This document shows positions 44,796-55,991 of a DNA stretch of 64,000 bases, in pieces. Each line of letters begins with the position of its first letter. Position 1 is the first letter of the stretch. The stretch is from Myxococcales bacterium SG8_38 (lineage in GTDB: Bacteria; Myxococcota_A; Polyangia; Polyangiales; Houyiibacteriaceae): contig LJTN01000006.1 of the NCBI GenBank assembly GCA_001303415.1, positions 19,759 through 83,758 of the forward strand. The letters run 5' to 3'. Below the pieces are notes generated by a model. The model was not told the origin of the DNA and did no database searches. It worked only from the letters and a program-made list of their open reading frames with translations. The translations under genes were made by a program, and so were the position numbers.

Positions 44796-45566
44796 CTAGT
44801 GTGGCTCATGCGGATGGTCCCCTGCGTGCTCGTGGGGATGGTCGTGAGCGTGATGATGATCGTGGTGCCCCCGATGCCCGGTCCTCGGAGGACGCCGCTC
44901 TTCCAGCCATTTCAACCACGCGTCGATGCCTTCGCCGGTACGCGCGGAGACCTTGAGCATTCGAGCCTCTGGCATGACCCGCGACAACGCGTCCTCCACC
45001 GCAGCCACGTCGAAGTCGAGATGCGGAATCAGGTCGACCTTGGTGAGCAACACGAGATCGGCCTTCTGGAACATCACTGGATACTTGAGAGGCTTGTCTT
45101 CGCCTTCCGTGACGGACAGCGCAACGACGTTGGCCGCTTGACCCAGATCGTAGATCGCGGGGCAAACCAGGTTGCCGACGTTCTCGATGAAGAAGATGTC
45201 GCTCTCGTTCGAGGGGAAATGGTGAAGCGCATGATGTACGAGACGCGCGTCGAGGTGACATGCCGAGCCCGTGGTGATGGTCGACGAAACGATCCCCGAC
45301 GCATTCAAGCGGTCGGCGTCGCGCTCCGTGGCGAGATCCCCGCTCACGGCCCCCAACTTCAGCCGGCCTGCGGCCGCCTTGGCCGTCGCCTCCAAGACCG
45401 CTGTCTTCCCGGCACCGGGCGAGCCCATGAGGTTTATGGCCAACACACCTAAGTGCTCGAAATGACTTCGATTATGAGCGGCTTGTGCGTCGTTGTCCGA
45501 AAGGATTCGTGCTTGTACCTCGATCGGCACGATCTCCGGGTCGCCGCATCCGCAGGTTTCACACAT
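44796..45566 (-). CDS. hypB: Hydrogenase nickel-incorporation GTPase HypB with C-terminal His-rich tail
   Basis: 'MCETCGC' N-terminal metal site, G1 'GSPGAGKT', 'ENVGNLVCP' and a C-terminal 'HRGHHDHHHAHDHPHEHAGDHPHEPH'. Confidence 0.92.
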   Translation of the reverse strand: MCETCGCGDPEIVPIEVQARILSDNDAQAAHNRSHFEHLGVLAINLMGSPGAGKTAVLEATAKAAAGRLKLGAVSGDLATERDADRLNASGIVSSTITTGSACHLDARLVHHALHHFPSNESDIFFIENVGNLVCPAIYDLGQAANVVALSVTEGEDKPLKYPVMFQKADLVLLTKVDLIPHLDFDVAAVEDALSRVMPEARMLKVSARTGEGIDAWLKWLEERRPPRTGHRGHHDHHHAHDHPHEHAGDHPHEPH

Positions 45567-45906
45567 CGGGGGCCTCCATTTCAATCCGTTCCAAGATGAT
45601 CTCGTCTCCGCGAACCATGCAAGCCGGTTGCCCGCATGCATCGCATCGCAAGATCGCTCCCTTTGCGAAGCTGCGGTTGCACACAGGGCAAGCCCATGCC
45701 GCGGACACGGTGTCGATTGCGAGCTCTGCGCCATCACAGATCGTCTTCTCGCGAAACGTGTCGAACGCAGTCTTCAACAGATCGAGCTCGACGCCGGCGA
45801 GCTCTCCGATCTTCACGTGAAGACGATGCACGCGCGTACCGCCGTGCGCGACCGCTTCCTGCTGCACGCGGTCGATCAAAGACGCAACGATGGAGTACTC
45901 GTGCAT
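45559..45906 (-). CDS. hypA: Hydrogenase nickel metallochaperone HypA
   Basis: 'MHEYSI' N-terminus and two CxxC pairs ('CPVC', 'CDAC'). Length 115 aa. Confidence 0.92.
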   Translation of the reverse strand: MHEYSIVASLIDRVQQEAVAHGGTRVHRLHVKIGELAGVELDLLKTAFDTFREKTICDGAELAIDTVSAAWACPVCNRSFAKGAILRCDACGQPACMVRGDEIILERIEMEAPDV

Positions 45907-45911
45907 GGGTG

Positions 45912-46754
45912 TTACTCGCTTTCGAATTCCGCCTTGCGCTTGTCGAAGAACGCGGCGAGCCCTTCTGCGAAGTTGGGGCCGTCGGCGATGCGCGCGAGCT
46001 CGGTGAGCTCTGCGTCGAGATGCACGTCGAGCCGGTCCATTCCGGCGGCCTGGTTCAAGAGGCTCTTGGCCACACCGACGGCCGCAGTCGGCGCCTCGGC
46101 GAGCGCCGCGGCGATCCTCGTTGCTTCCAAGTATATGGAATCATTGGAGAAGACACGATTGATCAAGCCCCATTCCAGGGCCTCTCGCGCGCTCAGACGC
46201 GGGTTGAGCAGCATGAGCTCGAGCGCCTTCCGAAGCCCGAGCAGACGCGGCAGAAAGAAGGTCGAGCTCTCGGCGCCGGTGAGCCCCGTCTTGAAGTAAG
46301 CCCACTCGAACCACGCGCGCTCCGACGCAACCACCAGGTCGCAGCTCATCGCAATGCCGAAGCCGCCCGCGGCTGCCGGACCGTCCACCGCGGCGATGAA
46401 TGGCTTGGGCGCACGCCGGATCTCGGAAATGGTGCTGTGGATGTACTCGAGGATCTGTTTGAAAATCTCTCCGTAGCCCTCGTCCGGTTTGCGTGTTTCC
46501 GGTTGCAGATATCCGAGATCGTCACGATCTCCCCCGTCCCGGATGTACTTCAAGTCCGCGCCACTACAGAAGACGCCGTCCTCTCCGCGAATCACCACGG
46601 CGCGGACGTCGCGATCGCGTGCAAGCTGCAGGCCCGCGCGCCGAAAGTCCTGAGCCGTCTCCACGTCCAGCGAGTTGAGGCGCTCGCGCCGTGCGATGGT
46701 GAGGATGCCGACGGCTCCCTCACGCTCCACTCGAATGTGCCGCATCGCACCCAT
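45912..46754 (-). CDS. Enoyl-CoA hydratase/isomerase (crotonase) family protein embedded in the hyp cluster
   Basis: 'VVIRGEDGVFCSGADL', 'FIAAVDGPAAAGGFGIAMSCD' and 'GLINRV' crotonase blocks. Gaps of 3-5 nt to hypE and hypA. Confidence 0.85.
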   Translation of the reverse strand: MGAMRHIRVEREGAVGILTIARRERLNSLDVETAQDFRRAGLQLARDRDVRAVVIRGEDGVFCSGADLKYIRDGGDRDDLGYLQPETRKPDEGYGEIFKQILEYIHSTISEIRRAPKPFIAAVDGPAAAGGFGIAMSCDLVVASERAWFEWAYFKTGLTGAESSTFFLPRLLGLRKALELMLLNPRLSAREALEWGLINRVFSNDSIYLEATRIAAALAEAPTAAVGVAKSLLNQAAGMDRLDVHLDAELTELARIADGPNFAEGLAAFFDKRKAEFESE

Positions 46755-46757
46755 CGG

Positions 46758-47798
46758 TCAGCAAATCCTAGGCAAGAGCTCACCCTCGGCTTCCGCCAAG
46801 AGCCGACTTCCAAAGCCGGTATCCAGCACGACGAAGCCGGGTCGGTCCGTCACGCATTCGCCCACAATTGCGGCGTTTCGGCCGAGCGGATGAGATCGGA
46901 TGGCATCCAGCACGGAGGCGGCGGCGTCGGGCCGCACGCCGAACACGGCCTTTCCCTCGTTTGCCGAGACCAGCGGGTCGATTCCCAAGAGCTCGCCCAC
47001 TGCACGGACCTCGTCGCGCAGGGGGATCTCCGGCTCGTCGAGGATGATGCCCACGCCGCTCTTGTCGGCCATCTCGTGCAGTGCGCTCGACAAGCCGCCC
47101 CGGGTCGGATCCTTGAGCGCCACGACATCCTCGCCGCCCACCTCGAGCGCGCGATGCACCAAGGTGTGCAGCGGCGCAACGTCGGATTCGAGCTGCGTCT
47201 CGAGCGCCAGCTCGTTGCGAGTTGCCATGATCGCGAGCCCATGATCGCCCATCGTGCCCGTCACCAAGATCCTGTCGCCCGGTCGAAGCCCGGCATCGGA
47301 GACCACTCGTTTGGTGAGCGCAACGCCGGTGGTGTTCAACACCAATCCGTCGATCTCGCCATGACCCATCACTTTCGTATCCCCCGTAACCACTGTCGTT
47401 CCGGCCTCCTCACAGGTGGCGCGAATCGAGCTCCAGATCCGTTTCAAGTCGTCGCGCGCAAAGCCGTCCTCGATGATCGCCGCGCAGGTCAGCGCAAGCG
47501 GCTGCGTCGCTCCCATCATCGCGAGATCATTGATGGTTCCGCAAACGGCCAGCCTGCCGATGTCGCCGCCTGGGAACTCGATCGGTTGAACGACGTGCGA
47601 GTCCGTCGTGATGACCAAGTACTGGTCCCCAAGCCAGATCGCCGCGCCGTCGTCCATCGCCGAAAGCCCGATGCCCTCGCGCCCGATGTCTCCCAAGCCT
47701 TGCGCGAAGACTTGCTCGATCAGCGCGCGCATCGCGCCCCCGCCGGTACCGTACTTCAGCGTGATGCGATCCTCGACGAAGCGAACGTTGCGCGTCAT
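46758..47798 (-). CDS. hypE: Hydrogenase maturation protein HypE (carbamoyl dehydratase)
   Basis: 'ITLKYGTGGG', PurM-like fold and a C-terminal '...PRIC'. ATGA overlap with the hypD stop. Confidence 0.93.
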   Translation of the reverse strand: MTRNVRFVEDRITLKYGTGGGAMRALIEQVFAQGLGDIGREGIGLSAMDDGAAIWLGDQYLVITTDSHVVQPIEFPGGDIGRLAVCGTINDLAMMGATQPLALTCAAIIEDGFARDDLKRIWSSIRATCEEAGTTVVTGDTKVMGHGEIDGLVLNTTGVALTKRVVSDAGLRPGDRILVTGTMGDHGLAIMATRNELALETQLESDVAPLHTLVHRALEVGGEDVVALKDPTRGGLSSALHEMADKSGVGIILDEPEIPLRDEVRAVGELLGIDPLVSANEGKAVFGVRPDAAASVLDAIRSHPLGRNAAIVGECVTDRPGFVVLDTGFGSRLLAEAEGELLPRIC

Positions 47799-48943
47799 GC
47801 CGCGCCTCGCTTCATCGAACGAAGGTCGGGCCGTCCACCGTACTGATGCCAGATCTTGCAGGTGCCTTCGGCGCTCACCATGCAAGCGCCAACCGGGCTC
47901 TCCGGGGTGCATTCCTTCCCGAAGAGCTGGCAGTCGGTAGGCGATGCGATGCCGGCCATGATGTCCCCGCATTGGCACTGCTGCACGAGCTTCGGCGGCG
48001 CGTAGCTCCAGATCGCGGACAGATCGATGTTGAAGCGCTTGCGCGTGTCGTAGCGCGCAAACTCGTCACGTAACCGAAGATTGCCGTTTGGGACGTGTGC
48101 AATGCCCCGCCAGCGGCCGCCAGTGGGCCGGAACACGCGCCAAAGAAGGTTCTGCGCCTGCACGTTGCCCTCGCGCGTCACGCATCGGGGAAACGCGTTT
48201 TCCACGCGCGGAACGCCACTATTGATCACTTCAAGCAGCTTGACCAAGCCGGCCAACACGTCGAGCGGCTCGAAGCCTGCGATCACCACGGACAGCTCGT
48301 GGCGCTCCACGAACTTCTCGAACACGGCGGACCCGGTAATCGTCGCCGCATGACCCGCTGCGAGGAAGCCCTCGATCTTCGTTTCAGGCATCTCCGCCAC
48401 GATCTCCATCACGGGGGGGATGTACTTGTGCGCCGAGAGGACCGAGAAGTTGTCCGGGGGATCGTCGACCAAGACCGCTGCGGTGGCCACGGCCGTCGTC
48501 TCGAAGCCGGACGCGAAGAAGACGAACTCTTCGTCGTATTGGCGCGCGAGCTCCGCGGCTTGCGTGACGCTGTACACCACGTCCACTTTGGCGCCTTCGG
48601 CCTTGGCGTCTGCAAGAGATTGAGAGGTGCCGGGCACGCGAAGCATGTCGCCGTACGAGGCGATGCGAACGCCCTGCTTTGCAAGAGCCACCGCTTCATC
48701 CACCTCCGGGACGTCAGTCACGCAGACGGGGCACCCCGGGCCCATGATCACCTTTAATTCATCGGGGAAAGCCGCTCTGAGCCCGAACTTCGCAATCGCC
48801 TGCTCGTGGCTTCCGCAGACGTGCATGACAGACACCGGGGCATGATCCGCCCGTTGCACCAGGCGATGCAGCGCATCGCGCAGACCCCGCGCGCGCTCGG
48901 GATCTCGAAACTTCAGCTGCTCGAATGCGTCAGCGCTTTTCAT
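47795..48943 (-). CDS. hypD: Hydrogenase maturation Fe-S protein HypD
   Basis: 'CGSHEQAI' and 'GPGCPVCV' motifs, plus a C-terminal Cys cluster. The start is uncertain (48943, 48973 or 49003). Confidence 0.92.
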   Translation of the reverse strand: MKSADAFEQLKFRDPERARGLRDALHRLVQRADHAPVSVMHVCGSHEQAIAKFGLRAAFPDELKVIMGPGCPVCVTDVPEVDEAVALAKQGVRIASYGDMLRVPGTSQSLADAKAEGAKVDVVYSVTQAAELARQYDEEFVFFASGFETTAVATAAVLVDDPPDNFSVLSAHKYIPPVMEIVAEMPETKIEGFLAAGHAATITGSAVFEKFVERHELSVVIAGFEPLDVLAGLVKLLEVINSGVPRVENAFPRCVTREGNVQAQNLLWRVFRPTGGRWRGIAHVPNGNLRLRDEFARYDTRKRFNIDLSAIWSYAPPKLVQQCQCGDIMAGIASPTDCQLFGKECTPESPVGACMVSAEGTCKIWHQYGGRPDLRSMKRGAA

Positions 48944-49253
48944 CGAGCGCGTCCTTCCGCGACCGTGTCGCATCTGGCGCCGCTTGAATCTCGTCACGGA
49001 CATCGCCGGCCATCAAGTCCTGCTCGTCGGCGAGACGGAGCAGCTCGTCATACAAAGCCAAGGTCTCGGCTGCTTCCTCAGGTGGGATTCGGCGAATCGC
49101 AAACCCAACGTGGTTCAGGATGTAGTCGCCTGGATCGACCGGCGCGTCACAGACCTCGAGGCGAACTTGTTTCCTGACGCCCCAAAAATCGACGGTCGCA
49201 ATCTGCATCTCGCGGTCCACTGCGATGACCTTGCCTGGCACACCTAAACACAT
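48930..49253 (-). CDS. hypC: Hydrogenase maturation chaperone HypC/HupF family
   Basis: 'MCLGVPGKV' N-terminus with the essential Cys2. 107 aa with an acidic C-terminal extension. Confidence 0.9.
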   Translation of the reverse strand: MCLGVPGKVIAVDREMQIATVDFWGVRKQVRLEVCDAPVDPGDYILNHVGFAIRRIPPEEAAETLALYDELLRLADEQDLMAGDVRDEIQAAPDATRSRKDALDEKR

Positions 49254-49263
49254 GAGAACGCTC

Positions 49264-51549
49264 CTATGCGCATCTGCCTTTGTCTCCCAGAAATGCGTCG
49301 GCGATCAAGGCCTGACCGAGCGCGATTCCGCCGTCTCCCGGAGGGACGTCTCGATGCCGTAATACCTCGTATTCATTAGATAAATTTTCCTGGATTTCAG
49401 CGGTCAGGCGGGCGTTGTGAAAAACCCCGCCCGTCAGTACGACCGGCAAAGGCTCTCGGCGCTCCATCAGGGCGCGGACAACCGTCACCGTGGCCCGGGC
49501 CAGAGCCCCATGAAAGCGCGCAGAGATCCTTCCCGGCGGCGCTCCGCGGACGATGTCATCGACTGCCGCTCGCGTGGCAGGACGAAGATCGATCTGCATG
49601 GGCTCCCGGCTTCGATCGATCTCGAACGGATACGGCTCGTCGTCATAGCCATCGGCTGCAAAGTCCCAGGCAATCGCGATCTGCCCTTCGTAGCTCGAAC
49701 GGGGACGTCCGAGCGCAAGCGCGCCAAACGCATCGAAATAGCGGCCTACCCCGTGGGCCTTTGGTGCGTTGAGGTCGCGCGCAATCATCTGAGCCACCAC
49801 GCGAACGGACGCTTCGGGAATCGCGCCGAAAAGCCCGAGCCGGTCGATCGGCGGATCACCATCGAACGCGTCGTGAAGAAGCGCATAGCTCACACGCCAA
49901 ACCTCGCGCATCGCCACGTTTCCTCCGGGCAGAGCAATGGGCCGAAAGGTGGCGAGCCGCTCGAAATTCCCCGCAGAACAAAGGAGAAACTCACCACCCC
50001 AAGAGGTGCCGTCGTCACCCATGCCGGTGCCGTCGAAGGCTACCCCGAGCGCCGGACCCATGCGGCCGTGCTCGGCCAACACGCTCGCGACGTGCGCGTG
50101 ATGATGCTGCACGGCGACGTGCTCGGCGTCTTGACGGGCCAAGGCATAGCGCGTGGATAGATATCCCGGATGAAGATCATGCGCGATCACCTCCGGCTCA
50201 ATCGACAAGATGGTCTGCATTCGCTCGACGGCCTCTTCGAAGAACGCAAGCGCCCCCACCGTTTCCAGATCGCCGATGTGCGGACCGAAGTACGCCGTGT
50301 CTCCTGCCGCCAGGCAGAACGTGTTCTTGAGGTGGGCGCCGCATGCCAACACCGGCCGGCAGAGCGGCTGACGAAGCATGAAGGGCCGAGGCACGAAGCC
50401 TCGCGACCGCCGAATCAGGACCGGCGCGCCTGCCATGATGCGAGCGACCGAATCGTCACAGCGCATAGCGATGTCGCGATCGTGCAGCAGCAGCCCGTCC
50501 GCGATTGTCGCGAGCCGGCGGCGGGCCTCGTCGTTGTCCTTGCAGATCGGCTCGTCCGCGACGTTGGCCGACGTCATGACCAGAGGGCGCCCCACCGCTC
50601 GAAGAAGAAGATGGTGCAGCGGCGTATAGGGAAGAAAAAGCCCCAAAAGTGGCGTGTCGGGGCTCACCTCTGCGGCGATCGGGCCATTGGGCCGTCCCCT
50701 CAGGAGCACGATTGGGCGTTCCGGCGAATCGAGCAGGGCTTCTTCGTCCGCGGTCATCTCGGCTAGAACCTGGGCGGCATCGAGATCGGCGACCATGACT
50801 GCAAAAGGCTTCTCATCGCGCTGCTTGCGCTCGCGAAGCAGTCGAATCGCGTCAGGGCTCGTCGCATCGCACGCCAAGTGAAAACCCCCCAGACCCTTGA
50901 CCGCGACGATCGCACCGCGCCGGAGCAGAGCGGCCGCCCCGTCCAGCGAATCCGTATCAGGCGCCCCGTCGCTGCCGAGCATCTCCAAGCGAAGCGTCGG
51001 TCCACAGGCTGGGCACGCATTGGGCTGCGCATGAAAGCGGCGATTCTCTACGTCGTCGTATTCTCGCCGACAGGCCGGGCACATCTCGAAGCGAGCCATC
51101 GTGGTCGCTGCACGGTCGTACGGAATGCCCATCGCGATCGTGAAGCGCGGGCCACATGCCGTGCAGTTGGTGAAGGCGTAGCGATATCGACGATCGTTCG
51201 GATCGAAGACTTCCGACTCGCACGCCGGGCAAGTTGCGAGGTCAGGCGGGATCGACAGCGCCTTCGACCCGGCCGAATCGCTCGACTCGATCCCGAACTC
51301 GGTCATCCCTTCGTCCGGGATTGGAGTTACCCGCACGTCGACGACTCGTGCCGAAGCCGGCGCATCCTCTTGCAGTCGCATCAAGAATTCGTTGAGATCG
51401 GTTTCAGTCCCAAAGGCCTCGATCAACACTCCGCTCGGCGCGTTTCGGACTCTGCCGGCAACGCCGGTCCGGCGTGCGAGCCGGTAGACCCAAGGCCGGT
51501 AGCCCACGCCCTGCACCGTGCCTCGAACTTCGATCCGCCGCCCAGCCAT
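49264..51549 (-). CDS. hypF: Carbamoyltransferase HypF
   Basis: Acylphosphatase domain 'VRGTVQGVGYRPW', two CxxC-x18-CxxC zinc fingers, and YrdC and Kae1-like domains. The ATG at 51549 overlaps the upstream stop (TGATG). Confidence 0.95.
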   Translation of the reverse strand: MAGRRIEVRGTVQGVGYRPWVYRLARRTGVAGRVRNAPSGVLIEAFGTETDLNEFLMRLQEDAPASARVVDVRVTPIPDEGMTEFGIESSDSAGSKALSIPPDLATCPACESEVFDPNDRRYRYAFTNCTACGPRFTIAMGIPYDRAATTMARFEMCPACRREYDDVENRRFHAQPNACPACGPTLRLEMLGSDGAPDTDSLDGAAALLRRGAIVAVKGLGGFHLACDATSPDAIRLLRERKQRDEKPFAVMVADLDAAQVLAEMTADEEALLDSPERPIVLLRGRPNGPIAAEVSPDTPLLGLFLPYTPLHHLLLRAVGRPLVMTSANVADEPICKDNDEARRRLATIADGLLLHDRDIAMRCDDSVARIMAGAPVLIRRSRGFVPRPFMLRQPLCRPVLACGAHLKNTFCLAAGDTAYFGPHIGDLETVGALAFFEEAVERMQTILSIEPEVIAHDLHPGYLSTRYALARQDAEHVAVQHHHAHVASVLAEHGRMGPALGVAFDGTGMGDDGTSWGGEFLLCSAGNFERLATFRPIALPGGNVAMREVWRVSYALLHDAFDGDPPIDRLGLFGAIPEASVRVVAQMIARDLNAPKAHGVGRYFDAFGALALGRPRSSYEGQIAIAWDFAADGYDDEPYPFEIDRSREPMQIDLRPATRAAVDDIVRGAPPGRISARFHGALARATVTVVRALMERREPLPVVLTGGVFHNARLTAEIQENLSNEYEVLRHRDVPPGDGGIALGQALIADAFLGDKGRCA

Positions 51550-51944
51550 CAAGGTCCGTCCTCAGCCACGCTGAGGACGTAGGCCACCACGTCCCATTTC
51601 TGCTCTTCGGTCAACGTGGGCCACGCGGGCATCGAGGTGCCCTGCTTACCTTCGCTCAGGACCTGGAACACGTACTTCGGCGTTACGCTTTGTCGCCATT
51701 GCGGGCGTTGGAAGTTGGTCGGCGGGTTCGACAAACCCTTGCGTCGCACTCCGTGTCCGTCGGCTTCCCGGCCATGGCAAAGTGCGCATTTTGCCCGATA
51801 GATCTCGCGTCCTCGCGCCCGCGCCTCGTCGGACGCGATCCGGTCCATCGGGACCTGCATGTGCTCGTACTCGCTGCTGATCCGATCCTCGGTCCTACAC
51901 GCCAAGAGTGCGAGCAAGATGAGCGTAGCTGTCGTTCGCTTCAT
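51549..51944 (-). CDS. Monohaem c-type cytochrome, lipoprotein
   Basis: Lipobox 'LLALLAC', 'CALCHG' haem-binding site and a distal 'GTSMPAW' Met ligand region. Confidence 0.8.
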   Translation of the reverse strand: MKRTTATLILLALLACRTEDRISSEYEHMQVPMDRIASDEARARGREIYRAKCALCHGREADGHGVRRKGLSNPPTNFQRPQWRQSVTPKYVFQVLSEGKQGTSMPAWPTLTEEQKWDVVAYVLSVAEDGP

Positions 51945-52440
51945 CGTGGTTCTCCGATCGGACCGGCGGATACCCGAGTGAGGTCAGCTCTTGCACCACC
52001 CGCTCCACGAGCTCCGGAATGCTCGCCTCGACGGGCGGCGTTCGCTCCGTCCCGAGGTCGATCGAGTCCGGCACGACACCGAGAATCACCACGCGATCCG
52101 GGTACCGGTCCAGCAAGCTGGCGCCGGCAAGGAGGTCCGCGACGCCGATTTGATGAGGTGATAGACGCTCGTAAACCGCCGGCGCGACGTCGTCGCCCTC
52201 GATGCGAACCAGCGTACCGGGAGGGCCCTCGGCACTGACCGCGTCGACCAGGATCACTTGGTCGGCGCTGTCTACGAGCGGCAATAGCGAAAGCCCGAGG
52301 GTGCCCCCATCGACGGCCAAGACGCCCTCGGGCAAATCGTACTCCCGGATCAGCTTGTGGATTGCAGCAATACCGGCGCCATCGTCCGTGCACACCACGT
52401 TGCCGAGGCCCAAGACGAGCACCGGTATGCGATCATTCAT
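51895..52440 (-). CDS. hupD: [NiFe]-hydrogenase maturation endopeptidase (HyaD/HupD family)
   Basis: 'VLVLGLGNVVCTDDGAG', 'VILVDAV' and 'SPHQIG' motifs. The 3' end overlaps the cytochrome c start by 50 nt. Confidence 0.88.
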   Translation of the reverse strand: MNDRIPVLVLGLGNVVCTDDGAGIAAIHKLIREYDLPEGVLAVDGGTLGLSLLPLVDSADQVILVDAVSAEGPPGTLVRIEGDDVAPAVYERLSPHQIGVADLLAGASLLDRYPDRVVILGVVPDSIDLGTERTPPVEASIPELVERVVQELTSLGYPPVRSENHDEANDSYAHLARTLGV

Positions 52441-53167
52441 CGCGCTTGCGCCAACCCTTTGGCAGCCACTTGTATCCACTGAACATGGAGTCGATGAGGC
52501 CCATGCCTTCGACCCGCGACACGAGCATGGCGCTCCAGATGTGGTGAGCAAAGAACCCCAGGAGGAACCACATCGCGATGTGGTGGATCCAACGCGCAGT
52601 TTGCGGGCCGCCGAAAAGCGGCAAGAACCAACCTCCGATTTCCCGCATGTAGCCCCCGTACTCGAGCCCGGCATTCACGGAGTAGAGGGCCAGCCCCGTC
52701 AGAATCATCACGAAGTAGAGCCCGAACACGGCGATGTAGGTGAGGCCGGCGAGGGGATTGTGGCCCACGTTCATCGGCGGCTTGCTGCTCAAGAACGTGT
52801 AGAACTTCAACATTCGAAACACGTCCCTGCGACGTCGGGCTCCGATCGGGAAGAACTGGTCCCATCGCGCATAGTGCGAGCCGACGAACATCCAGGCGAC
52901 CCGGACCAAAACGGTCAGGGTGAAGATGATCGCGGCATAGAAGTGCACTATGCGCATGTTCGTCATCACGAGTTGCTCCGCTTCGGGTCCCCTCGGAATG
53001 TAGAACGGCTTCCCGATGTAGATCCCGGTGACTGCGAGCAGCAAGAGCGAGAGCATGATGATCCAGTGGCTCAAGCGCACCACCAGATCCCACACGTAGA
53101 CCCGTTCGAGCTCCGCGTGATGGGGCGGGCGTGCGCCCTCGGCAACCGAAGTGCTTGGCGGGCTCAT
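52433..53167 (-). CDS. hupC: Ni/Fe-hydrogenase b-type cytochrome subunit
   Basis: 'YVWDLVVRLSHWIIM', four TM helices with conserved His. ATGA overlap with the hupL stop. Confidence 0.9.
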   Translation of the reverse strand: MSPPSTSVAEGARPPHHAELERVYVWDLVVRLSHWIIMLSLLLLAVTGIYIGKPFYIPRGPEAEQLVMTNMRIVHFYAAIIFTLTVLVRVAWMFVGSHYARWDQFFPIGARRRRDVFRMLKFYTFLSSKPPMNVGHNPLAGLTYIAVFGLYFVMILTGLALYSVNAGLEYGGYMREIGGWFLPLFGGPQTARWIHHIAMWFLLGFFAHHIWSAMLVSRVEGMGLIDSMFSGYKWLPKGWRKRDE

Positions 53168-54870
53168 CGGACCTTCACGCGAGTCACCTCGCGCCCTCCA
53201 GTATCGACGACGTGCACGCCGCAGGCCATGCACGGGTCGAAGGAATGAACCGTCCGAAGGATCTCGATCGGTTGCTCCGGATTGGCGATTGGCGTCCCCA
53301 AGAGCGCCGCCTCGTACGGGCCGGGTGTTTCGCCCTCGTCTCGCGGCCCCGCGTTCCAGGTGCTCGGAACGACACACTGGTATCGTGCAATCTTGCCGTC
53401 TTTGACGTGCACCCAATGGCTGAGTGATCCGCGCGGCGCTTCGTGGAAGCCGGCGCCCATCGAGTCCTTCGGCCACGAGGCGGGCTCCCACTTGCTGTTG
53501 TCGTGGATCCGAAGCTCGCCCTTGCCCATGTTGGCTGCGAGCTCGTCGGTGAAGTCCCCGATCTTGTCGACAAGGATCTTCGTCTCGATGCCGCGCGCCG
53601 CAACGCGACCGAGCGTCGAGAAGAGCGCTGCAGGACCAACCTCGAGCTTCCCGAGCACGGCGTCGACCAGCCCTTTGACTTGCTCGTGGCCGCGAGCGTA
53701 CGCCACCAGCATCCGCGCCAGCGGACCGACCTCCATCGGAACGCCGTCGTATCGCGGCGACTTCAGCCAGGAGTACTTACCGTCGGTGTTGAGTCGTTCG
53801 TAGGGCGGCTCGGGTCCGGTGTACGTGGGCTTGGTCTGACCCTGCGACGGGTGCAGGGTTTGATCGTCTCCGCCGTCGTATTCATACCAGGAGTGCTTGA
53901 TCGCCTCGGTGATCTTGGACGGATCGAAGTCCTCCACCTTCGAGAGATCGCGGTTGCGAATGATTCCCGAGGGCAAGAACTTCTCGGGGTCGGCCTCGTC
54001 GCTCAGGGGATACTCCCCGAAGACCATGTAGTTGCCGGTGCCTGCGCCAATTCCAGCCCAGTCCTTGTAGAAGGATGCAACGGCCAAAAGGTCGGGGATG
54101 TACACCTTGCTCACGAACTCCTGCGCGCCGGCGATGAGCTTCTTGAACTGCGCGATCGTATGGATGTTGAGCGAAGCCTGATGGTTGGGATCGACGGGAG
54201 TCGCCATGCCACCCACCAAGAAGCTCTGTAGGTGCGGGTTCTTGCCGCCGAGAATCGCGTGCATCTTGATGAACTCTCGCTGCCAGTCGAGGGCCTCGAG
54301 ATAGTGCGCAACGGCCATGAGGTTTGCTTCCGGGGGAAGCTTGTATGCGGGATGGCCCCAGTACGCGTTCGCGAAGGGACCGAGCTGGCCCCGTTCGACC
54401 AGGCTCTTCACGCGGTCCTGGATGCCCTTGAAGTACGTCGCGCTCGACTTGCCCCAATCCGAGATCGACATGGCGAGGTCGGACGTGGCCTTCGGGTCTG
54501 CTTCGAGCGCCGACACGATGTCGACCCAATCGAGGGCATGCAAATGATAGAAATGAATGACGTGGTCCTGGATGCACTGCGCCGCAATGATCAGGTTGCG
54601 CAAGAGCCGCGCGTTGGGTGGAGGCTTTGCCCCGATCGCATCCTCGACCGCCCGGATCGACGCGATGGCATGCACCGTCGTGCAGACCCCGCAGATGCGC
54701 TGCGTGAATGCCCATGCATCTCGGGGATCTCTTCCCTGCAAAATGATCTCGATGCCGCGAAACATGGTCGAGGACGACCATGCGTTGGCGACTTTCCCTC
54801 CATCGACCTCGGCTTCGATGCGTAGGTGGCCTTCGATGCGGGTCACGGGATCGACGACGATATGGGTCAT
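53164..54870 (-). CDS. hupL: [NiFe]-hydrogenase large subunit (group 1, uptake type)
   Basis: 'DPVTRIEGHLRIE', N-terminal 'RICGVCTTVH', and C-terminal 'DPCMACGVH' followed by a 15-aa cleavable tail. Confidence 0.96.
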   Translation of the reverse strand: MTHIVVDPVTRIEGHLRIEAEVDGGKVANAWSSSTMFRGIEIILQGRDPRDAWAFTQRICGVCTTVHAIASIRAVEDAIGAKPPPNARLLRNLIIAAQCIQDHVIHFYHLHALDWVDIVSALEADPKATSDLAMSISDWGKSSATYFKGIQDRVKSLVERGQLGPFANAYWGHPAYKLPPEANLMAVAHYLEALDWQREFIKMHAILGGKNPHLQSFLVGGMATPVDPNHQASLNIHTIAQFKKLIAGAQEFVSKVYIPDLLAVASFYKDWAGIGAGTGNYMVFGEYPLSDEADPEKFLPSGIIRNRDLSKVEDFDPSKITEAIKHSWYEYDGGDDQTLHPSQGQTKPTYTGPEPPYERLNTDGKYSWLKSPRYDGVPMEVGPLARMLVAYARGHEQVKGLVDAVLGKLEVGPAALFSTLGRVAARGIETKILVDKIGDFTDELAANMGKGELRIHDNSKWEPASWPKDSMGAGFHEAPRGSLSHWVHVKDGKIARYQCVVPSTWNAGPRDEGETPGPYEAALLGTPIANPEQPIEILRTVHSFDPCMACGVHVVDTGGREVTRVKVR

Positions 54871-55991
54871 GCCTCACCTCCTTTGGGATTGACGTTGGGG
54901 TCGGCGGGCGTGTCCTTCCCCGATTGCATGCGCTTCTTCCCGAGATGCACCAGTGTGTGTCCGGCGAACGCGGTCGTAACGCCGATGGTCGCCCAAAAGC
55001 CCACCTTGTCGATGTTGGAGCCCTTGCCGAAGCCGGGGAATCCTGGAATGTGCGCGTAGAACGGAGTCATCTTGTCCCAGAAGTCAGGCTCGGCGCAGCC
55101 GATGCAGCCGTGGCCGCACGCAATGGGCCAACTCGTGTTGTCGTTCCAACCGACGTTGGGACAGTTTTGGAACGTGACCGGGCCCTTGCATCCCATCTTG
55201 TATAGGCATTGTCCCTCACGGTGCGCTTCGTCGCCCCATTGCTCCACGAACTGGCCCGAGTTGTAGTGGGAGCGGCGCTCGCACGCGTCGTGAATCGACT
55301 TGCCGTACGCAAACAGGGGCCGATTGAGCTTGTCTAGCGCAGGCCAGTCGCCGTAGGTCAAATAGTAGACCAACGTGGCGGTCATGTTCTGCGCATTCAT
55401 CGGGCAAGCAGACAGATTGATCAGCTTCTTGATTCCCGGAACCGCATCGCCGACGCCGAGCGCGCCGGTAGGATTCGGCGAGGCTGCGGGAATTCCGCCG
55501 AAAGTCGCGCAAGTGCCCGCCGCGATCGTCGCCGCCGCATTACCACATACCTCGCGCGCGATGTCGATCGCCGCTCGTCCACCGACCGTGCAATATGCGC
55601 CATTGGCGCCGGTTGGAATCGAGCCTTCGACGACCGCGATGTACTTGCCTTTTTGATTCTCGACGACCGCGCGAAGGTTTGCTTCGGCTTGATGACCAGC
55701 GGCTGCCATGATCACTTCGTGATAGTCGATCGAGATCAAGTCGAGGATCACTTCGGCAGCGGTCGGTTTGCTCGCACGCAGGAAGGACTCGGTGTTGCCC
55801 GCGCAGTCTTGATAGTTGAGCCAGACCAGCGTCGGCTTCGGATTGTTTTCGATTGCCTCGGCGATCATCGCTGTCGCGCCTTTCGGCAATCCAAACGCCA
55901 CTGCCATCGCAGAGCAAAAGCCCATGAACTCGCGACGCGAAACTCCACGAGCCGCCAGCTCCCGACGGAAGTCGCTTTGCAATTTACCCAT
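54867..55991 (-). CDS. hupS: [NiFe]-hydrogenase small subunit, Tat-exported, with C-terminal membrane anchor
   Basis: Twin-arginine 'SRREFMGF'. Fe-S ligand blocks 'GTCATFGG', 'SACP', 'HDACERRSH', 'CLYKMGCKGP' and 'CGHGCIGC'. The first proximal motif reads 'DCAGNTES'. Confidence 0.95.
   Translation of the reverse strand: MGKLQSDFRRELAARGVSRREFMGFCSAMAVAFGLPKGATAMIAEAIENNPKPTLVWLNYQDCAGNTESFLRASKPTAAEVILDLISIDYHEVIMAAAGHQAEANLRAVVENQKGKYIAVVEGSIPTGANGAYCTVGGRAAIDIAREVCGNAAATIAAGTCATFGGIPAASPNPTGALGVGDAVPGIKKLINLSACPMNAQNMTATLVYYLTYGDWPALDKLNRPLFAYGKSIHDACERRSHYNSGQFVEQWGDEAHREGQCLYKMGCKGPVTFQNCPNVGWNDNTSWPIACGHGCIGCAEPDFWDKMTPFYAHIPGFPGFGKGSNIDKVGFWATIGVTTAFAGHTLVHLGKKRMQSGKDTPADPNVNPKGGEA

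Follow-up and report, generated by a model that had tools for sequence, protein, structure and literature searches.

A stand-alone crotonase beside hypE in hydrogenase maturation operons: a candidate counterpart of the HypX C-terminal domain in Myxococcota and other phyla

What is a gene of the enoyl-coenzyme A (CoA) hydratase type doing inside an operon for the maturation of a [NiFe]-hydrogenase? The question is raised by a 64,000-nucleotide stretch of the genome of Myxococcales bacterium SG8_38 (contig LJTN01000006.1, positions 19,759 to 83,758; hereafter the window), in which a crotonase gene (45912..46754, minus strand; Pfam ECH_1, E 1.6e-47, residues 11-279) lies between hypE and hypA. 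The first-pass annotation of this DNA had described an intact gene of 280 amino acids (aa) on the strand of its neighbours, with gaps of 3-5 nucleotides, and this was correct in every detail: hypE, the crotonase and hypA share the minus strand, the crotonase starts 3 nucleotides past the end of the hypE open reading frame (ORF) at 46758, and it ends 5 nucleotides before hypA (45906). An alternative start at Met4 (46745) gives a 277-aa form, as in many homologues. To my knowledge, HypX, the enzyme that makes the carbon monoxide (CO) ligand in aerobic hydrogenase maturation, is known from a few aerobic H2 oxidisers and is the only enzyme identified for CO-ligand synthesis; its C-terminal half is a crotonase domain. 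The answer favoured here, which sequence comparison and gene context make fairly probable, is that the window crotonase is a free-standing counterpart of that domain, a predicted formyl-CoA decarbonylase supplying CO to HypCD.

The distribution of the gene bears first on whether it belongs to the operon at all. A search for orthologues, with one genome taken per species, returned 80 loci at 62-95% identity from Myxococcota (Polyangiales, Sandaracinaceae and Kofleriaceae), Acidobacteriota (Thermoanaerobaculia and Vicinamibacteria), Methylomirabilota/Rokubacteria, Gemmatimonadota, Binatota and one Haloferacaceae metagenome-assembled genome (MAG). When these were searched by tblastn with the Hyp and Hup proteins of the window, the crotonase was found to adjoin hypE, and usually hypC and hypD too, in 79 loci, and the 80th has a hypE fragment directly upstream of the crotonase, so that the linkage to hypE is complete. 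Furthermore, an even sample of 121 genomes from the window's order contains the family in 14, every time within 5-20 nucleotides of hypE; none of the 121 has the crotonase without hypE, and 35 further genomes have hypE without the crotonase. This is a real gene on which purifying selection is strong, mean column identity being 74% over 27 orthologues from six phyla. The family is also well delimited, because in a library clustered at 50% identity the scores drop sharply from the family, at more than 250 bits, to ordinary crotonases of 36-41% identity.

The first-pass annotation had left room for an unrelated passenger. Such a gene would encode a crotonase of ordinary metabolism, for instance a hydratase, a PaaG-like isomerase or an alternative oxepin-CoA hydrolase, and database comparisons taken alone would favour this reading. 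The only domains recognised are ECH_1/ECH_2 (Pfam), the best NCBIfam and PDB matches are to PaaG, oxepin-CoA hydrolase and enoyl-CoA hydratase, the AlphaFold2 model (predicted local distance difference test score 86) has a generic crotonase fold with Foldseek template-modelling scores of 0.82-0.84 to ordinary crotonase structures, and members of the family are publicly annotated as enoyl-CoA hydratase or PaaG isomerase, the JGI calling relatives PaaG. Nevertheless, no NCBIfam equivalog cut-off is reached, and the shortfall is large throughout: the best model, NF046063 (alternative oxepin-CoA hydrolase), gives 183.5 bits against a cut-off of 300, and the PaaG model, TIGR02280, gives 151.7 bits against 345. 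In alignments the two catalytic glutamates of the hydratases (Glu144 and Glu164 of the rat enzyme) fall on Ile134 and Tyr153, so both are absent, as is the catalytic aspartate of PaaG-type enzymes, and the crotonase does not group with the beta-oxidation hydratases. No paa or fatty-acid genes were seen near the hyp operon. Above all, linkage to hypE at every one of the loci across six phyla, and in every carrier genome of the order, effectively refutes a passenger by synteny, and I regard that reading as scarcely credible.

If the hydratase residues are gone, what has the family kept? BLASTP aligns the crotonase with the HypX C-terminal domain over 211 residues (29% identity, E 1e-13). The HypX sequences compared were those of C. 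necator (pHG1) and of Aquifex (taken from the PDB alignment), with six more from plasmid records. Within the active-site segment F149-L168 (FEWAYFKTGLTGAESSTFFL; 46251..46310, minus strand), Tyr153 (46296-46298) falls on HypX Tyr439 and Glu162 (46269-46271) on HypX Glu449, by BLASTP and, independently, by MAFFT L-INS-i, and the MAFFT alignment also places Ala129-Gly-Gly on Ala392-Gly-Gly of HypX. In the structure 6J0P, Tyr439 and Glu449 (Tyr416 and Glu426 in Aquifex) flank the CoA thiol, and mutants in them are HypX-minus (PMC6802093); Ala392 lies near the CoA cysteamine (PMC6802093). The motif reads FEWAY..G.LTGAE in the family and NPHY..G.LYGSE in HypX, and Tyr153 and Glu162 are invariant in all 27 family members compared. 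Both catalytic residues of HypX are thus conserved in the crotonase, a check that the first-pass annotation had proposed. Among 150 cluster representatives and 15 same-genome paralogues, the G-[AS]-E motif is confined to the window family, HypX and one other representative, P0261; the nearest crotonases outside the family have P-D-G where the window family has G-A-E.

Loss of the canonical glutamates would also suit a catalytically inert subunit, structural or chaperone-like, that belongs to the maturation machinery and has merely kept a crotonase fold, and its protein-protein interface could be the highly conserved insertion that is specific to the family (residues 70-108, KYIRxGGD...GYGEIFKQILEYIHSTISEI). 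The segments of the oxyanion hole and of CoA binding, FCSGADL and AAAGG, are nonetheless invariant in the family, as is the Tyr/Glu pair, which makes retained chemistry likely. Moreover, pairing with an apparently active formyltransferase, as its conserved residues suggest (see below), implies that a substrate is handed over. An inert subunit is therefore quite improbable.

That pairing occurs in a quarter of the relatives. Between hypE and the crotonase, 22 of the 80 loci have a further gene of ~200 aa with a Formyl_trans_N domain (Pfam, E 2e-19), namely 20 of the 23 loci from Acidobacteriota, one from Gemmatimonadaceae and, with the gene in divergent orientation, that of the Haloferacaceae MAG. 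The product is nearer to PurU/PurN (35% to the PurU of the window genome) than to HypX's N-terminal domain, and its Asn-x-His and Asp are intact in all 21 copies aligned. At least 46 loci are from Myxococcota, and all of these are without a formyltransferase partner. The first-pass annotation had proposed to look for a separate formyltransferase gene; such a gene adjoins the orthologue in these 22 loci, and the window genome has no dedicated one. Taken with the Tyr/Glu pair and the separation from the hydratases, the partner gene supports the proposal of a split or alternative HypX-type route to the CO ligand.

A second and rarer lineage (P0261 and P0392), with 40-45% identity to the window family, has a formyltransferase of another kind. 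Its crotonases are preceded by a Formyl_trans_N+C gene of 291-303 aa that is HypX-N-like, including the HP...D-x-RG segment. At its loci (L115, 1255-2968; L116, 9135-10843; L117, 4750-6458) the order is hypC-hypD-hypE, then the Formyl_trans_N+C gene, then an overlapping or abutting crotonase of 278-280 aa with the Tyr / G-x-E motif; hypF is convergent. Because these are three contigs with two distinct sequences, P0261 and P0392 represent a genuine two-gene split HypX rather than a sequencing frameshift. Both HypX activities thus occur as neighbouring genes, and with two kinds of formyltransferase; no other finding argues as strongly that a formyl thioester is what the crotonase handles. Natural fusions of the two were also sought, but the long representatives (P0248-P0288) proved to be frameshifted or mis-called fragments, one with a piece of HypA and none with a Formyl_trans domain.

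How closely is the family related to HypX? A maximum-likelihood tree of 13 family members, 8 HypX C-domains, 20 representatives and 15 same-genome paralogues sets the family, P0254, P0261 and the HypX C-domains apart from 33 other crotonases with support of 100/99, and within that group the HypX C-domains are sister to P0261 (93/75). A hidden Markov model (HMM) of the HypX C-domain, run over 159 crotonases, ranks P0261 first and the family next, with 68-86 bits for the two together, the others scoring mostly 55-66 and at most 74.

Several results weigh against so close a comparison. When the 21 motif columns are removed, a free tree search loses the group of HypX and the family and places HypX with long-branch paralogues (49/40), and a tree constrained to keep the group is better by 3.2 log-likelihood units, a non-significant difference (approximately unbiased test, p 0.63). 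The signal that joins them thus appears real in these trees but comes largely from the active-site segment, and since the grouping is lost without the motif columns, the family and HypX may have converged on the same catalytic loop. The reverse profile comparison is also unfavourable, as the family HMM scores the HypX C-domains at 34-64 bits, below generic crotonases, an asymmetry consistent with a HypX C-domain that arose from an ancestor like the family and has evolved fast. The 50 best Foldseek matches are all ordinary crotonases and do not include 6J0P, and a phmmer search of the PDB gives ~1e-33 to PaaG and uncharacterised enoyl-CoA hydratases with HypX outside the top 60. Tyr153 by itself is common among neighbouring crotonases. 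Finally, the only Formyl_trans_N genes of the window genome are PurN, PurU and Fmt, none of them a dedicated partner, and no formyl-CoA transferase (Frc) above the curated cut-off was found there. The comparison of profiles and structures that the first-pass annotation had proposed thus came out divided: the HypX-C profile favours the family, whereas in overall sequence and fold the crotonase is no closer to the HypX C-domain than to generic crotonases. Strictly speaking, the crotonase is not a HypX, since it lacks the fused architecture and the comparisons are divided on specific homology, although it has the catalytic residues and the gene context of one.

The window genome itself (assembly 3.6 Mb, 92% complete) has a single [NiFe] large-subunit gene, which lies in the hyp operon, and one haem-copper oxidase. 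No canonical HypX was found in it by tblastn with HypX, a search that also missed the window crotonase that BLASTP finds, which I take to be a seeding artefact; nor was one found in the 121 genomes of the order, in a search made without a positive control. The window contains no Formyl_trans_N gene, and with PurU, PurN and Fmt as the only such genes, and no partner among them, the crotonase stands alone in its genome. This agrees with the suggestion of the first-pass annotation that formyl-CoA would be drawn from another source. As a separate observation, contig C65 (L114, 3186-4843, minus strand) carries purU (formyl-tetrahydrofolate (THF) deformylase, 418 bits) and, 8 nucleotides after it, a crotonase of the PRK07509 type (332 bits); this was rejected as a relative of the hyp-operon gene, as it keeps a canonical glutamate and is without the GAE motif.

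A solitary crotonase invites a different reading, in which the protein is dedicated to hydrogenase maturation but has some other CoA-dependent role: turning over a different small acyl-CoA (decarboxylating or hydrolysing an oxalyl-, glyoxylyl- or formyl-CoA species, for example), scavenging formyl-CoA, or acting as a CoA-binding adaptor of HypCD that does not itself release CO. The crotonase superfamily includes decarboxylases and hydrolases, strict hyp linkage fixes a role in maturation and not the chemistry, and overall similarity to the HypX C-domain is low; the 57 loci without a formyltransferase, together with the absence of a formyl-CoA source from the genome, fit a substrate that does not derive from formyl-THF. 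On the other hand, the invariant residues are exactly the essential pair of HypX, and the partner is twice independently a formyl-THF-type transferase (once PurU-like, once Fmt/HypX-N-like), which points to a formyl group. I therefore consider this alternative unlikely, while giving it more weight than the passenger or the inert subunit.

Under the favoured reading, that of a free-standing formyl-CoA decarbonylase, the crotonase would cleave formyl-CoA to CO and CoA-SH, with Tyr153 and Glu162 acting as the base pair of decarbonylation. The CO would then pass to the iron on HypC-HypD, the scaffold that the operon also encodes, and would become the carbonyl ligand of the NiFe(CN)2CO site in the single membrane-bound uptake hydrogenase; the route would presumably be used when O2 is present. 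Formyl-CoA as substrate, CO as product, delivery to HypCD and the link to O2 are what I infer for the protein.

A full-text literature search turned up no account of HypX in stand-alone or split form, and a 2025 review of [NiFe]-cofactor biosynthesis mentions fused HypX only. I would put forward a broader proposal tentatively, as a possibility suggested by the sequences: that the family is a widespread, unrecognised CO-ligand synthase in phyla of soils and sediments (Myxococcota, Acidobacteriota, Methylomirabilota, Gemmatimonadota, Binatota and some haloarchaea), perhaps ancestral to the HypX C-domain or else its nearest free-living relative, with two formyltransferase types recruited or fused at different times and the partner-less form working on the cellular formyl-CoA pool or another donor. 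If this is true, formyl-CoA would be a general precursor of the carbonyl ligand and not a speciality of HypX, the known CO route would reach major H2-consuming soil phyla through a compact 280-aa decarbonylase, and a minimal protein would be available for studying decarbonylation apart from formyl transfer. The partner-less crotonase also raises the question of which metabolite supplies formyl-CoA, which bears on proposals for the anaerobic CO route. In addition, the labels 'enoyl-CoA hydratase' and 'PaaG isomerase' would lead metabolic reconstructions astray and obscure a hydrogenase-maturation gene, one that would be useful for the heterologous production of O2-exposed hydrogenases.

The operon around the crotonase comprises 12 genes on the minus strand in the order hupS-hupL-cytb-hupD-cytc-hypFCDE-ECH-hypAB (Pfam, NCBIfam). 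The structural and accessory genes are those for the [NiFe] small subunit (54867..55991; TIGR00391, 415 bits), the large subunit (53164..54870; NCBIfam and PDB matches, and the single PF00374 match in the genome), a b-type cytochrome subunit (52433..53491; PF01292, E 1.3e-27), a maturation endopeptidase of the HupD/HycI type (51895..52674; PF01750, E 3e-26) and a monohaem cytochrome c of 131 aa (51549..51944; Cytochrome_CBB3 family, PF13442, E 9e-15). These are followed by hypF (49264..51552; Acylphosphatase, zf-HYPF, Sua5 and HypF_C domains), hypC (48930..49253; PF01455, E 1.9e-23), hypD (47795..49003; PF01924, E 8e-128) and hypE (ORF as listed, 46758..47978; TIGR02124, 376 bits against a cut-off of 251.6), and after the crotonase by hypA (45559..45906; PF01155, E 2.5e-27) and hypB (ORF as listed, 44796..45737; TIGR00073, 270 bits, HMM match from residue 73). 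The listed hypE and hypB ORFs run ~70 codons upstream of their HMM matches and so overlap hypD and hypA, respectively; since the hypE match begins at residue 71, the true hypE start is probably near 47770-47790, and the starts of both genes are probably internal, the long apparent overlaps being a product of the choice of the longest ORF. A consensus scan found no promoter- or terminator-like sites inside the operon above shuffled expectation. Unrelated housekeeping genes flank it, with cdsA/uppS at one end and glutamate dehydrogenase at the opposite end.

Two features of the hydrogenase genes deserve mention. The cytochrome c gene between the maturation protease and hypF is kept there in most related loci; it is unusual for a hydrogenase operon and may tie the oxidation of H2 to the aerobic chain through a c-type branch. 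Residues ~61-70 of HupS read QDCAGNTESF, so that the second cysteine of the usual CxxC, at the proximal Fe-S cluster, is Asn. This change is found in 8 of 9 related hupS loci, the Rokubacteria locus (L043) having the standard CAGC, and the same Cys-to-Asn/Asp change is described in group 1f and group 2a hydrogenases (PMC5364354). As judged from its sequence, the window enzyme is thus probably an uptake hydrogenase like those of group 1f, even though the Allochromatium enzyme (3MYR) is its best match in the PDB.

The haloarchaeal relatives add some side observations. In the Haloferacaceae MAG (L075, 194-1821) the formyltransferase and the crotonase form a divergent pair ~3.7 kb from hypE-hypD-hypC, and the best plasmid match of the window HypE is in a haloarchaeon (54%), which suggests inter-domain transfer of such hyp clusters unless the Haloferacaceae contig is mis-binned. 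Plasmid pAArc1-02 of Natrarchaeobaculum sulfurireducens (L085) carries a similar hydrogenase/hyp operon in which hypE-hypA-hypB run without a crotonase. This host is an anaerobic sulfur reducer, and its hydrogenase small subunit has the standard CTGC motif. As a single anecdote, the crotonase-free operon is consistent with an O2-related role of the crotonase, for which the haem-copper oxidase of the window genome is likewise circumstantial evidence.

How, then, does the window crotonase compare with systems already known? It shares its fold and ~30-40% full-length identity with the PaaG isomerase/oxepin-CoA hydrolase group, many members of which also have Tyr at the position of the second hydratase glutamate. 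Enzymes of that group, however, carry their catalytic Asp in a P-D-G loop, which in the window family is G-A-E, are without the conserved ~20-residue insertion of the family (within 70-108), and are encoded in aromatic or fatty-acid catabolic clusters and never in hyp operons. In the split HypX of L115-L117, too, a crotonase with the Tyr / G-x-E motif stands by itself after hypE, but its partner is Fmt/HypX-N-like, and the tree places it as sister to the HypX C-domains and not within the main family.

A further comparison is with HypX (HoxX) itself, the N10-formyl-THF-dependent CO-ligand synthase of aerobic [NiFe]-hydrogenase maturation in C. necator (pHG1), Rhizobium leguminosarum and Aquifex aeolicus (6J0P). 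Its C-terminal half has the crotonase fold with the homologous Tyr and Glu, the G-[AS]-E loop and the Ala-Gly-Gly of the window family, and in Cupriavidus, Bradyrhizobium, Rhizobium and Sulfurovum the canonical hypX lies directly after hypE, the very position of the window crotonase. A plasmid of Sulfurovum mangrovi (NZ_CP087125.1; L092, 3001-4618) has between hypE and hypA a HypX-like region, annotated as a 305-aa formyltransferase and a 66-aa hypothetical protein and matching HypX in three pieces, which is a hypX in decay or else a further split form. HypX is a single fused protein of 560-600 aa, whereas the window crotonase is a stand-alone 280 aa; the tightly bound CoA of HypX swings between its two domains through an internal cavity, and the window protein corresponds to the crotonase part alone. 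The formyltransferase found in relatives of the window family is PurU/PurN-like and encoded by the gene directly upstream, while HypX's N-terminal domain is of another type. Lastly, HypX is found in the classical Knallgas Proteobacteria and in Aquificae, and the window family in Myxococcota, Acidobacteriota and other soil phyla.

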